A stretch of 64,000 nucleotides of DNA from an uncultured Gemmatimonadota bacterium. Lineage in GTDB: Bacteria; ARS69. The DNA lies in NCBI GenBank assembly GCA_964571855.1, contig CAZNDO010000016.1:4601-68600 (forward strand). Reading direction: 5' to 3'. A program made the translations under genes and the position numbers. Positions 51,742-58,042 of this stretch are shown here, piece by piece; position 1 is the first letter of the stretch; each line of letters starts with the position of its first letter. The notes below the pieces were generated by a model, which made no database searches, had not been told where the DNA came from, and saw only the letters and a program-made list of their open reading frames with translations.

Positions 51742-52416
51742 GTGCCCGCGCGGGATCGCGCGCGGGCCGCGCGTCGCGGCGCGGCCGCGCGGACGGGGGC
51801 CTTCCTTCCCGCCGCGATCCTCGCCGCCGTCTCCCTCGGGACCGGCTGCGGCGCCCCGGCGTCCTATCCGGGCGATCTCGTCCCCGCATCCCTGGCGCCG
51901 GCGGCGCCCGCCGATGCCGCGCCCGACGCCCCGGTCGTCCTGCAGGCCGCGGACGTGGAGCGCCTCCCCTCCGGCCTCGCCCTCATCCGCGCGGACCGCG
52001 CCCGCGCGGCGCCGGCGTTCTCCCTGGCCGACGAGTCCGGAGTCGTGCACACGCCGGAGAGCCTCCGCGGCCGCGTGGTGCGGCTGGAGATGTGGGCGAC
52101 GTGGTGCGCCACCTGCCGCGCGGACTTCCCGCACCTGCAGCGCCAGCACGAGACGTGGGCGGAGCGCGGGGTCGTCGTGCTCGGCGTGTGCCGCGAGTCG
52201 AAGCGCGAGGACTTCGAGCAGGCGGTGCGGAAGGAGTGGCGCACGTTTCCGGTGGTGGACGCGAATGACGCGCGCGACTTCCCGTTCCCGGTGGGGGCGT
52301 TCCCCACCAGCGTCGTGCTGGACGCGGAGGGACGCGTGCGCGCGTTCTGGCAGGGGTGGCGCCCGCCCGAGGTCGTGGAGGAGGTTCTCGCGCGGCTCGT
52401 GGACGAGGCGTCGTGA
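51742..52416 (+). CDS. TlpA-like thioredoxin-fold lipoprotein.
   Basis: Lipobox AAVSLGTGC. Thioredoxin motif WATWCATC. Confidence 0.7.
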   Translation: MPARDRARAARRGAAARTGAFLPAAILAAVSLGTGCGAPASYPGDLVPASLAPAAPADAAPDAPVVLQAADVERLPSGLALIRADRARAAPAFSLADESGVVHTPESLRGRVVRLEMWATWCATCRADFPHLQRQHETWAERGVVVLGVCRESKREDFEQAVRKEWRTFPVVDANDARDFPFPVGAFPTSVVLDAEGRVRAFWQGWRPPEVVEEVLARLVDEAS

Positions 52417-53735
52417 GCGCCCCGGCGTCCCCGGGACGGCGCGGCCGCGGCGCGCTCCTGTTCGCCTTCCTGGCGATCACCGTGGCCGTGATCAACCTGG
52501 CCGGCTGGTTCGTGGTGGACCGCGTCTCCAGGGCCTTGGAGGCCGAGACCGCCCTTCGGCTCGTGGCGGTCGCGTCCGCGGCGATCGGGGAGGCCACCGA
52601 GGAGCTCCTGCTCCGCCCCGAAGTGGCCGGCGACGCCTTCGTCACGGCCACGCTCCGCGGCGCCGCCGCCCGCAACGACCTGGATGACGTGCTGCTGTAC
52701 GACGCGTCGGGCGCGCTGCTGTTCGACCTGGAAGGCGCGGACCTCGGTCCCGCGAACCCCTACGCCGCGGTGCACGCGCCGTCCTTCGCCGCCGCCGCCG
52801 CGGGCTCGGCCGCGGCGTCGCCGGCTCGCGACGTCTCCGGACTCGCGTTCCGCTCCGCGTACGCGCCCGTGCACGACGCGGACGGCACCGTCGGGGCCGT
52901 GCTCGGCGTGGCCGCGGGCGGCGGGTTCCTCGCCCGGCTGCCCGCGCTGCGGCGCACGCTGTGGCTCGTGTCCGCCGGCTCGGCCGCGCTCGTGGCCGCG
53001 CTGGGCGCCCTGCTCTTCGGGATGGACCGCCGGCTCGCGGCCACGGAACGCGCGCTCGCGCGCTCGGAGACGCTGGGCGCGATGGGGATGATGGCGGCCG
53101 GCGTGGCGCACGAGGTCCGCAACCCGCTCGCGATCATCGCGGGCACGGCGGAGCGGCTGCGCAAGAGGTACGGCGCCGGCGCGGACGATCCCCTGTTCGG
53201 GTTCATTCCCGAGGAGGTGGACCGCCTGAACACCATCCTCGAGGGCTACCTGCGCTTCGCCCGCGACGAGCCGCTGCGCCTCGCGGACGTGGATCTGGCG
53301 CGCGTGGTGGACCGCTCGCTCGAGCTCGTGGCGCAGGAGTGGGCGCCGCGCGGCGTCGCCTTCGAGCGCCGCGGCGCCGCCGGCCCGCTCGCCGTGTCCG
53401 GCGACCCGCAGCGTCTCATGCAGGTCCTGCTGAACGTGCTGATCAACGCGGCCCAGGCCATGCCCGGCGGCGGCGCCGTGGGGGTGGAGTTGGCCCGCGA
53501 GGGCGCCGCCGTCCTCGTGTGCGTGACGGACGCGGGGACCGGCTTCGACCCGCGCGCGCTGGCCGGCGCGTTCCAGCCCTTCTTCACCACGAAGGAGCAC
53601 GGGTCGGGACTGGGACTGGCCATGGCGAAGCGGATCATGGAAGGTCATGGCGGGTCGATCGAGGTGGCGAACCGGCCCGAGGGCGGCGCGCGCGTGACGC
53701 TGCGCCTGCCGGCCCGCGCGCAGGGAGGGGAGTGA
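52413..53735 (+). CDS. Sensor histidine kinase (two transmembrane helices plus a periplasmic sensor domain).
   Basis: GTGA overlap with the upstream stop. H-box GVAHEVRNPL. N, G1 and G2 boxes (LLNVLINAAQA, TDAGTGF, GSGLGLA). Confidence 0.8.
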   Translation: MSAPASPGRRGRGALLFAFLAITVAVINLAGWFVVDRVSRALEAETALRLVAVASAAIGEATEELLLRPEVAGDAFVTATLRGAAARNDLDDVLLYDASGALLFDLEGADLGPANPYAAVHAPSFAAAAAGSAAASPARDVSGLAFRSAYAPVHDADGTVGAVLGVAAGGGFLARLPALRRTLWLVSAGSAALVAALGALLFGMDRRLAATERALARSETLGAMGMMAAGVAHEVRNPLAIIAGTAERLRKRYGAGADDPLFGFIPEEVDRLNTILEGYLRFARDEPLRLADVDLARVVDRSLELVAQEWAPRGVAFERRGAAGPLAVSGDPQRLMQVLLNVLINAAQAMPGGGAVGVELAREGAAVLVCVTDAGTGFDPRALAGAFQPFFTTKEHGSGLGLAMAKRIMEGHGGSIEVANRPEGGARVTLRLPARAQGGE

Positions 53736-56382: not shown

Positions 56383-56711
56383 TGCGCGGCGCGCGGGCGG
56401 CGGCGTTCGCCTTCGTGCTGTCCCTGGCGGCGGCGGCGCGCGGCGCGGGCGCGCCGGCGGATTCCGCGGCGACGGCGCCGGCGACGGCCGCGGATCCGGT
56501 GGAGCGGCACTGCGGCGAGCTCGCGGCGGCGCTGGAGCGCCTGGCCGCGGAGCATCGCGCCGCCGCGGCCGCGGACTCCCTGCTGGTGGTGGAAGCGGAG
56601 GAGATCGCGCGCGTGGCGGACGAGATCCTCGCCGAGGGCGATGCGGTGCTCGCGCGCGACCTCCTGACCGAGGCCCTGGCGCTGCTCGCGCCGGAGCGGG
56701 CCGCCCCGTGA
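56382..56711 (+). CDS. Small secreted hypothetical protein (109 aa).
   Basis: The start overlaps the upstream stop. Signal peptide MRGARAAAFAFVLSLAAAARGAGA. Ala-rich. Confidence 0.4.
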   Translation: MRGARAAAFAFVLSLAAAARGAGAPADSAATAPATAADPVERHCGELAAALERLAAEHRAAAAADSLLVVEAEEIARVADEILAEGDAVLARDLLTEALALLAPERAAP

Positions 56712-58042
56712 GGCGGCGCACGGCGGCCCGCGTGGCCGCGCGTCGCCCCGCGAGGCCCCGCGCGCTCGCGGCGATCGCCGCCGCGTCGGTCATCCCCGCC
56801 GTCGCGCTCGCCGCCCCGCTCGAGGTCGTGCCGCGCGTGGGTGCGGACTTCGAGCACTTCGGCCAGACCTACCGGGTCACCGCGGACGCGGACACGGTCA
56901 CGCTCGTGGACGACTACGGCACCTCCGCGGGCCTTCTCCTGCGCACGCCGGGCATCGGCGCGGACCGGTTCGAGGCCGACGCCGAACTGTACGCGGGCCA
57001 CTCCACGCGCCGGGCGCGTGTGCGTGTGGAAGGGAGGGCGAAGCGCGGGGCGACGGTGTGGGACGTGCGCCAGGAGGCGGTCTACCTGGCGTTCACGGAC
57101 GGCGGCGACTACACCGTCTCCGGCGACCGTTTCGAGGAGCGGCTGACCGCGGCGTGGGAGCGGCGCATGACGGGGCCGTGGTCCGTGCGCCTGGGCGGCC
57201 GCTTCGACGGGACCTGGTACGAGACGCAGGACCCGTACAACCTCACGGCGTGGACGACCGAGCCGCGCGCGGATCTGGCGCTGGACTTCGGCGCGTTCAG
57301 CCGCGCCGGCGCCGGCTACCGCTTCGCGCGCCGGGACGTGCCGGACTCCGCGTCGCTCGGGTTCGACCGGCACACGGGCGTGCTGTCGCTCTCGTGGGCC
57401 CCGGGGGCGGATACCGTGCTGGACATCCTCGGCACGCTGGAGCGGCGGCGCTACGACGAGGGCAGCGCGCGCGAGAGCTCGCGGGAGGGGCGCACGGACC
57501 TGCGGTTCGAGTTCGGCCTGACGGACGCCGTGACGTGCCGCGTGCAGCACGAGAACGAGATCGTGCGCTACGACGAGCCGGACGAGCTGGACTTCGACTC
57601 GGACTGGGGACGCACCGGGCTGCAGCTCACGGTGCACCGCACCGCGGCGCTGGATCTCTCGATCATGCCGCTGCACGCGTTCCTGTCCGGGGCCACGTCG
57701 CCGGAGGAGGAGTACCACGAGCTGGGCGTCGAGCTGGGCGTGGACTGGCGCTTCGGGCGGCGCGGCTGGGTCTCCGTGACGAACGAGATCGGCCGTCGCG
57801 ACTACCGAGTGGACGCCCCGGCGGAGGAGCCGGACCTCGCCGCGGACGTCCTCCCGGACGACGCGAGCGCCACCGCCTCGTCCGACTACACCTACGACCG
57901 CCTCACGCTCCTCCTCGGCGCCGAGCCGTGGCCGGGCGTGGCCGCGAACCTGTTCGTGCACTGGCAGCCGGAGGATCACGCGGTGAGCCGGCACGACAAC
58001 GAGACGCGCATCGTCTCGGGGGGGCTCACGTACTCGTTCTGA
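56708..58042 (+). CDS. Outer-membrane beta-barrel protein, hypothetical.
   Basis: GTGA overlap. Signal peptide ..ALAAIAAASVIPAVALAAP. Amphipathic strands. Ends ..GGLTYSF. Confidence 0.6.
   Translation: MRRRTAARVAARRPARPRALAAIAAASVIPAVALAAPLEVVPRVGADFEHFGQTYRVTADADTVTLVDDYGTSAGLLLRTPGIGADRFEADAELYAGHSTRRARVRVEGRAKRGATVWDVRQEAVYLAFTDGGDYTVSGDRFEERLTAAWERRMTGPWSVRLGGRFDGTWYETQDPYNLTAWTTEPRADLALDFGAFSRAGAGYRFARRDVPDSASLGFDRHTGVLSLSWAPGADTVLDILGTLERRRYDEGSARESSREGRTDLRFEFGLTDAVTCRVQHENEIVRYDEPDELDFDSDWGRTGLQLTVHRTAALDLSIMPLHAFLSGATSPEEEYHELGVELGVDWRFGRRGWVSVTNEIGRRDYRVDAPAEEPDLAADVLPDDASATASSDYTYDRLTLLLGAEPWPGVAANLFVHWQPEDHAVSRHDNETRIVSGGLTYSF

Follow-up and report, generated by a model that had tools for sequence, protein, structure and literature searches.

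A Conserved Locus of Uncultured Diderm Bacteria Probably Encodes a Self-Contained Two-Component Cassette for the Cell Envelope under Sigma-54 Control

Introduction

In the ZraSR-ZraP system, a kinase whose sensor is periplasmic works with a sigma-54 activator to induce a helical protein that is exported; this protein is a chaperone and also a repressor of the kinase (PMC4987338). More broadly, a proposal has been made that sigma-54 controls the bacterial exterior in general (PMC3162934). The locus described here lies in a stretch of 64,000 nucleotides (hereafter the window) from an uncultured Gemmatimonadota bacterium (assembly GCA_964571855.1, contig CAZNDO010000016.1, positions 4,601 to 68,600 of the forward strand), and encodes a sensor histidine kinase (HK), an NtrC/AtoC/ZraR-class enhancer-binding response regulator (EBP), a secreted repeat protein (REP) and an outer-membrane (OM) β-barrel. 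As judged by comparison of related loci, the HK, the EBP, an enhancer/promoter region, REP and the barrel are a conserved unit that travels together; this unit is considered, with somewhat better than even confidence, to be a self-contained sigma-54-dependent two-component cassette that acts on the cell envelope, with REP and the barrel as its envelope effectors. The control logic of the cassette is of a familiar kind; neither of its two effector protein families has a name in databases.

The closest described system is ZraS-ZraR-ZraP of the Enterobacteria, which likewise combines a periplasmic-sensor kinase and an NtrC-class activator with an adjacent target that is Sec-exported and all-helical; of the named families, ZraS and ZraR give some of the highest scores for the window HK and EBP. 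By equivalog score the proteins fall outside ZraPSR, with 206.6 bits for ZraS against a cut-off of 479 and 390.5 bits for ZraR against 760. The targets also differ: ZraP is a CpxP/Spy-family LTXXQ protein of ~140 aa, whereas REP is a 350-aa rod of four repeats, each a three-helix bundle, and the Zra target is divergent, whereas the target operon here is co-directional and always includes an OM barrel. A match to the CpxP/Spy/ZraP (LTXXQ) family was looked for with Pfam in 16 close and 49 diverse REP homologues and was not found; unlike ZraPSR, the cassette has no conserved metal-ligand motif. By analogy, it may work like Zra without belonging to that family.

The regulator architecture (REC, AAA+ and Fis-type helix-turn-helix (HTH) domains) is held in common with AtoS-AtoC, NtrB-NtrC and GlrK-GlrR, and AtoC is the best NCBIfam match of the EBP (446 bits against a cut-off of 714). 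NifA-type enhancers have the form TGT-N10-ACA. Those of the GlrR type have the form TGTC-N10-GACA (PMC4987338 Table 1). The enhancer predicted here is a TGT...ACA palindrome like both; it differs from the AtoSC, NtrBC and GlrKR arrangements in being a single palindrome rather than tandem sites, in its targets, which are envelope proteins rather than metabolic genes or small RNAs, and in the GAFTDA rather than GAFTGA loop of the activator in the clade of the window.

Conservation of the Cassette

Related loci were gathered from genomes and metagenomes (54 in all, some duplicates of one another); the genome records among them are metagenome-assembled genomes labelled Candidatus Eisenbacteria/Eiseniibacteriota, Zixibacteria, WOR-3, Gemmatimonadota or only "bacterium". 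Three complete Zixibacteria genomes, CP070674, CP070777 and CP070756, have the cassette. Synteny was counted by tblastn and local hidden Markov model (HMM) searches across these loci. The EBP gene lies directly upstream of REP in 28 of the 29 loci having enough sequence, the HK gene is upstream of the EBP gene in 20/20, and a barrel homologue directly follows REP in all but one of 42 loci (41/42). Beyond this four-gene core the flanking genes change from clade to clade. Found solely in the window clade (roughly 41-87% identity) are a 109-aa small secreted protein encoded between REP and the barrel, a TlpA-like redoxin and a 727-aa secreted protein encoded upstream of the HK, together with genes for an extracytoplasmic function (ECF) sigma factor, a zf-HC2 anti-sigma factor and a thioredoxin, and, downstream, an M48 peptidase with a two-component system of the OmpR type. 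Clades that are more distant and lower in identity, Zixibacteria and WOR-3 loci included, have other upstream neighbors. The redoxin, the 727-aa protein and the ECF module were considered as core parts and rejected, as they are absent from the distant loci.

An earlier sequence-only reading of the window had described the locus as a dedicated, uncharacterised unit with a redox link. The first part of this description holds, in that the four core genes travel together and no curated family is matched by either effector. The redox link as a part of the system does not survive the comparison, since the redoxin, 727-aa and ECF/anti-sigma/thioredoxin genes are restricted to the window clade (roughly 41% identity or more).

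Locus Architecture

The window has a G+C content of ~75%, because of which open reading frames (ORFs) alone are uninformative; genes were called from a frame plot of G+C at third codon positions (GC3) together with translations. The features of the region are as follows.

49547-51730, plus strand: gene for the 727-aa secreted protein
end at 52416, plus strand: gene for the TlpA-like redoxin lipoprotein (Pfam AhpC-TSA/Redoxin; motif WCATC)
52413-53735, plus strand: gene for the sensor HK (Pfam HisKA and HATPase_c; GTG start)
53735-55129, plus strand: gene for the NtrC/AtoC/ZraR-class EBP (assigned by Pfam)
between the EBP and REP genes: gap of 200 nt
55140-55157, plus strand: GC-rich hairpin directly after the EBP stop codon (from sequence and RNA fold; no T-run)
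55167-55182, unstranded: palindrome TGTCCC-GCGG-GGGACA, probable enhancer (upstream activating sequence, UAS)
55240-55249, plus strand: CAA-N4-TTG element (CAACGACTTG)
55275-55290, plus strand: sigma-54 -24/-12 element CGGCAC-GCGGC-CTGCA
55315-55321: ribosome-binding site GGAAGGA, ahead of the REP ATG at 55330
55330-56382, plus strand: gene for REP, 350 aa
56382-56711, plus strand: gene for the small secreted protein, 109 aa
56708-58042, plus strand: gene for the OM β-barrel, 444 aa (GTG start)
58057-58093, unstranded: GC-rich hairpin (stem arms GGAGGGCGG at 58061-58069 and CCGCCCTCC at 58082-58090; fold -30.4 kcal/mol; no T-run)

Start and stop codons overlap at four junctions: GTGA between the redoxin and HK, TGATG between the HK and EBP, TGATG between REP and the small protein, and GTGA between the small protein and the barrel. 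The overlapping stop and start strongly support co-translation of the HK and EBP. Both hairpins lie at the ends of predicted units; that at 55140-55157 is a possible transcript end or attenuator of the kinase-activator unit, and that at 58057-58093, which sits between the barrel gene and a convergent OMP_b-brl gene (58113-58775, minus strand), probably ends transcription in both directions. A scan of 51500-59000 found no canonical intrinsic terminators and no sigma-70-type promoters, and Rfam and tRNA scans of the region gave no matches.

Much of what the sequence-only reading had placed here is borne out: the HK, the NtrC-type activator, REP, the small protein and the barrel are recovered at the same positions by the GC3 frame plot, translations and Pfam, all the overlaps taken as translational coupling are present, including the GTGA of the redoxin and HK, and the 727-aa secreted protein is found upstream with no family match. 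Its proposal that REP is built from four repeats is upheld by alignment z-scores and an AlphaFold model, and its sigma-54 promoter ~40 nt upstream of REP (55275-55290) is strengthened by conservation across phyla; the scan for other sigma-54 sites that it had suggested yielded a second, perfect site, at 18897-18882.

The Sigma-54 Promoter

The -24/-12 element CGGCACGCGGCCTGCA has its GG at 55276-77 and its GC at 55288-89, leaving the GG-N10-GC frame intact, and agrees with the consensus at 9/11 positions. The predicted transcription start is near 55300 and the ATG of REP follows the -12 GC by 41 nt. The pattern GGCAC-N6-TGCW is seen three times in the window against 0.97 expected, which within the window alone is not significant; as the in-window match is not beyond chance, the case for the promoter rests on the related loci. 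Conservation was assessed in 40 non-redundant loci, over the region from -300 to +40 of the REP start, by counting sites that match at least 9/11 positions. Such a site stands ahead of the REP orthologue in 28/40 loci, at a density of 2.15/kb compared to 0.117/kb elsewhere in those loci (18-fold).

Most loci that lack a site at this threshold carry a recognizable variant, which is GGCAC-N5-TTG(T/A) in the Zixibacteria-type loci and a weaker -24 with a perfect TTGC in four others. The Zixibacteria-type loci (L013, L014, L015, L022, L037, L043 and L054) have TTGT or TTGA at -12 and yet keep the -24 GGCAC and a perfect TGTACC-N4-GGTACA palindrome; the "GC" rule at -12 may have been relaxed specifically in this lineage.

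The second site in the window, TGGCAC-cgacc-TTGCA (18897-18882, minus strand), is a perfect match and lies ~32 nt ahead of the ATG of a gene at 18073-18850 (minus strand) that has a GGGAGGG ribosome-binding site; the product of ~258 aa has no Pfam match. No TGTCCC palindrome is found upstream of this gene, which is presumably served by a different activator. The placement and perfect sequence of the site suggest that the organism uses sigma-54; no rpoN was recognized among the genes scanned in the 64-kb window.

The Enhancer Palindrome and a Candidate Bending Element

The palindrome TGTCCCGCGGGGGACA (55167-55182) spans 16 bp, is perfect and of the TGT-N10-ACA type, and is the sole exact match in the 64 kb. 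It lies ~40 nt past the EBP stop codon and begins 109 nt before the -24 GG, with the -24/-12 promoter ~100 bp further downstream. When upstream regions were aligned with the -24 element as anchor, the same or a near-identical palindrome appeared at -106 to -109 in relatives, while a second clade displays TGTGCA/TGTACC-N4-TGCACA at -59 to -70, and the Zixibacteria-type clade TGTACC-N4-GGTACA. An exact TGT-N10-ACA occurs in 13/24 loci, where 0.014 per region would be expected. The three types of half-site go with three EBP recognition helices (ITRRALYGRL, ITRRMLYTKL and ITRRRLYSRM); because co-variation of half-site and HTH recognition helix is the pattern expected of a binding site for the EBP, the palindrome is probably its enhancer (UAS).

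Between the palindrome and the promoter lies CAA-N4-TTG (55240-55249), which aligns in the window and five related loci (L005, L001, L002, L007 and L008). It matches the core of the known consensus of integration host factor (IHF), WATCAANNNNTTR, and is tentatively regarded as a candidate DNA-bending (IHF) site.

The Sensor Kinase and the Activator

The HK is predicted to have two transmembrane helices around a periplasmic domain of ~170 aa, followed by the DHp domain (H-box AHEVRNPL) and the catalytic domain; it contains neither HAMP nor PAS. Its top NCBIfam matches are ZraS and AtoS, both under cut-off.

The EBP consists of a REC domain, an AAA+ sigma-54 interaction domain and a C-terminal Fis-type HTH, the domain set of the NtrC family; Pfam matches are Sigma54_activat (E 7.5e-69), Response_reg (8e-26) and HTH_8 (1.2e-15), plus AAA_lid_14. 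The phospho-acceptor, assigned from sequence, is D52 within DVVLTDLRL. AtoC, NtrX and ZraR of NCBIfam match the protein, all under their cut-offs. The GAFTGA loop that contacts sigma-54 reads GAFTDA in the window and 8 loci of its clade, and GAFTGA or GSFTGA in 30 others; GAFTDA is a natural variant compatible with activation, as it is found in the working sigma-54 activator DVU2106 (PMC4641369). Among the EBP orthologues of L001, L002, L007-L010 and L025 the GAFTDA form is clade-wide. The Walker A motif of the window EBP is GASGTGK and that of its relatives GESGTGK.

The Repeat Protein and the Small Protein

REP is a 350-aa protein with a Sec signal peptide (AHA/Q) and without a lipobox; the mature part is made of four tandem repeats of ~76-81 aa each. 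Pairwise local alignments scored against shuffled sequences give z values of 6.4-10.4 when R1 is compared with R2-R4 and R3 with R4; R2 has diverged, with z of 2.8 against R3 and 0.6 against R4. The AlphaFold model (mean predicted local distance difference test score 89) has 12 helices that form four antiparallel three-helix bundles, with the helix 87-136 continuous across repeats 1 and 2. As modeled, REP is a spectrin-like rod. The repeat motif is ELeRTD...V.ES.S..A..LLe.A..Q..A....TrEAR.LA.RA., and its consensus keeps polar or charged residues at RTD, the ES-S turn, Q and T-EAR. A word-seeded search found 16 relatives, and a full HMM scan of metagenomes placed 1,066 clusters (at 50% identity) in the family at E<=1e-3 and 225 at E<=1e-30. 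The HMM matches fall into two length classes, of ~340-350 aa and ~425-445 aa; the longer class is matched in at least two stretches and may carry an extra repeat.

Neither REP nor the small protein has anything above threshold in Pfam, NCBIfam or PDB sequence searches. Pfam searches of 16 close and 49 diverse REP homologues gave no consistent family, and YfdX, HEPN, DUF357 and DUF4398 appeared below threshold. Foldseek of REP against the PDB gave no match at E<=0.001; fold comparison matched the periplasmic insert of Myxococcus TatC, AF1782 and the spectrin-like N-domain of Borrelia BB0323. The spectrin-like domains of the envelope (the BB0323 N-terminal domain, PDB 6rjw; the TatC insert, PDB 9e03/9e0s; EzrA) resemble REP in being tandem antiparallel three-helix bundles with a continuous joining helix, located in or near the envelope. 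The REP repeat is ~78 aa long compared to ~106 aa in spectrin, and at an identity of 12-13% there is no sequence-level relationship; furthermore, BB0323 has a LysM domain and, unlike REP, no partner barrel.

Several named families were tried for REP and set aside. For YfdX (PF10938) the score is 24.2 bits against 26.6 required, over profile positions 1-36 of 149; DUF4398 (PF14346), a lipoprotein family with a single three-helix bundle, is matched below threshold by 2 of 49 members. Both DUF4398 (PA2901, PDB 4fm3) and YfdX are small periplasmic helical proteins, whereas REP is a four-fold tandem array and no lipoprotein. Assignment to the tetratricopeptide repeats (TPR) was rejected because the model consists of three-helix bundles, and a metal-binding role of the ZraP, CnrX or SMBP kind was rejected because no His, Cys or Met position is conserved. 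Literature searches found nothing relevant on DUF4398, nor on Eisenbacteria with sigma-54.

The small protein (109 aa) has a signal peptide, a linker rich in Ala and Pro, and a helical hairpin at its C-terminus (EAEEIARVADE..EGD..LA..LL.EALALL); a single Cys is conserved. The hairpin gives a weak in-register alignment to helix 1-turn-helix 2 of the REP unit, and on this sequence likeness the small protein may be a truncated paralogue of REP.

The Outer-Membrane Barrel

The barrel has a signal peptide, ~20 long strands and the C-terminal sequence ...GGLTYSF. No Pfam, NCBIfam or PDB sequence match was found, and a profile search with the barrel alignment recovered just 27 proteins, all "hypothetical". 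The barrel shares 6-10% identity with the OprD/Occ porins and lacks a Pfam match to OprD, and ~20 strands are predicted against 18 in OprD/Occ; membership of this family, which would call for a sequence match and 18 strands, was rejected. TonB-dependent barrels (22 strands) and MtrB (26 strands) score nearly as high as OprD/Occ, and the match is to the barrel class rather than to one family. Export of the AlgK/AlgE type was also considered as a family for the locus, and its TPR scaffold, Alginate_exp/EpsL-type barrel and linked synthase were not found.

Proposed Circuit and Alternative Explanations

The regulatory half of the cassette is well supported as a textbook sigma-54 two-component circuit. 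In the proposed mechanism a periplasmic or envelope cue would be sensed by the periplasmic domain of the HK, which would then phosphorylate D52 of the EBP; the EBP would oligomerize on the palindrome and be brought by DNA looping to the promoter-bound sigma-54 holoenzyme, possibly helped by bending at CAA-N4-TTG. With the promoter opened by ATP hydrolysis, the coupled REP-(small)-barrel operon would then be expressed. The near-obligate pairing of REP and barrel and their translational coupling suggest two proteins that would work together at the interface of periplasm and OM; with low certainty, they may be an obligate pair made on demand for envelope remodeling or protection, and REP could feed back on the HK in the manner of CpxP and ZraP. 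We infer the stress role from the predicted localization, from analogy to ZraPSR and Cpx, and from neighboring envelope-quality genes. A more specific form of this hypothesis, in which the REP rod docks on or threads into the ~20-strand barrel as a plug or periplasm-spanning strut that an envelope-monitoring sigma-54 system builds on demand, is put forward tentatively and is held to be rather less probable than not.

Several observations weigh against a stress-responsive envelope cassette under sigma-54 control. The -24 of the window begins with C rather than T and its -12 is CTGCA rather than TTGCA, and the sigma-54 dependence of the REP operon is a prediction from sequence. The periplasmic sensor domain of the HK has no significant Pfam match, just faint, non-significant hints of Cache/CHASE. 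REP displays neither conserved His, Cys or Met metal ligands nor an LTXXQ/CpxP-Spy signature. The neighboring genes of stress type are clade-specific, and the barrel is closest in likeness to substrate-specific porins, which fits a role in uptake as well as one in stress.

This last point leads to an inducible, substrate-specific OM channel for solute uptake, in which the HK would sense a nutrient or small solute (as DctB, AtoS and ChiS do) and REP would escort or bind the solute or channel in the periplasm. It is favored by the likeness of the barrel to porins and of the regulators to AtoS/AtoC. Against it, the conserved cassette brings along neither an inner-membrane transporter nor a catabolic gene, periplasmic solute-binding proteins as known do not resemble a rod of four three-helix bundles, and the likeness of the barrel is to large barrels generally, including the 22-strand TonB-dependent and 26-strand MtrB types. 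A solute channel is considered plausible, though clearly less likely than the main reading. The two effectors could instead be a pair for export or surface display, the barrel translocating or housing REP (compare MtrA in MtrB, LptE in LptD, or Slam-type systems) as an inducible coat or strut. The probability of this is small, as the barrel lacks POTRA, TPR and DUF560 features and the fold matches of REP are to generic three-helix bundles at low identity. Export of exopolysaccharide through a helical scaffold and a polymer porin (AlgK/AlgE, PgaA or BcsC type) is more doubtful still and is given little credence: REP is made of three-helix bundles and not of TPR hairpins, Pfam TPR matches being sporadic (2/49 members), the glycosyltransferases of the window lie on the other strand and are missing from distant loci, conservation does not extend to any synthase, Wza, Wzc or exosortase gene, and the EpsL score of 13 bits is under the cut-off of 275.

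The remaining alternative concerns the control region, where the -24/-12 match could be fortuitous, with REP transcribed by read-through or from an unrecognized sigma-70-type promoter and the EBP controlling genes elsewhere. The degenerate pattern does occur three times where about one is expected in a window of 75% GC, the site is imperfect at 9/11, and no canonical terminator separates the EBP and REP genes. The element, its spacing and the palindrome are nevertheless kept across phyla at protein identities of 28-87% and GC contents of 46-79%, 51500-59000 holds no sigma-70-like site, and a 200-nt gap with a GC-rich hairpin lies between the two units in all loci; a chance match is therefore regarded as highly improbable.

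Neighboring Genes

In the window clade the kinase-activator unit is joined to the TlpA-like redoxin, and the further neighbors are the ECF sigma/ZAS anti-sigma/thioredoxin genes, the OmpR-type system coupled to an M48 peptidase, and a PDZ protein; this setting suggests, circumstantially, that the cassette may in this clade have been wired into an envelope or redox stress island. The ECF sigma factor, a short soluble zf-HC2 anti-sigma factor and the thioredoxin are encoded in a row at 48061-49442; an ECF-type motif GGAAC-N17-CGTT (49053-49078) lies just upstream of trx and a hairpin follows trx, an arrangement that recalls the SigR-RsrA-TrxA thiol-stress unit. The 727-aa protein has no Pfam, NCBIfam or PDB sequence match; within the clade it is kept at 41-62% identity, always between trx and the redoxin or the kinase. 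On the other side, 58113-62852 encodes the OMP_b-brl protein (minus strand), an HK, an OmpR-type regulator, the M48 peptidase (overlap at 60842-60845) and a double-PDZ protein (minus strand); the arrangement is like CpxAR-HtpX in its logic, and synteny of the genes is kept in close relatives.

Elsewhere in the window, a cluster of signaling and folding genes at 35403-40864 includes a response regulator with two STAS domains, an HD_5 protein and a secreted fusion of a HEAT-repeat protein with a cyclophilin, the last on the minus strand. The N-terminus of the HD_5 protein is receiver-like by eye, with no Response_reg match at E<=1e-4, and the protein is perhaps HD-GYP-like. A 1,135-aa ORF at 9980-13387 combines pseudouridine synthase and transketolase-like domains; it is either a real fusion or two genes merged by crude calling at high GC.

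Significance

If the effectors prove to be an ordinary inducible porin and its helper, the value of the locus is mainly in annotation. If REP docks on or threads into the barrel, the cassette would be a new system of envelope stress or OM homeostasis without a homologue in model bacteria. In it, a readable circuit of sensor, activator, enhancer and promoter is paired with two effector families that databases do not name, and the circuit offers a defined series of activator/enhancer specificities. For the proposed role of sigma-54 in controlling the bacterial exterior, the cassette would be a clean, phylogenetically validated example from phyla without cultured representatives; being compact and self-contained, the circuit could be rebuilt in a heterologous host, and would thus be a route into the envelope biology of uncultured diderms.

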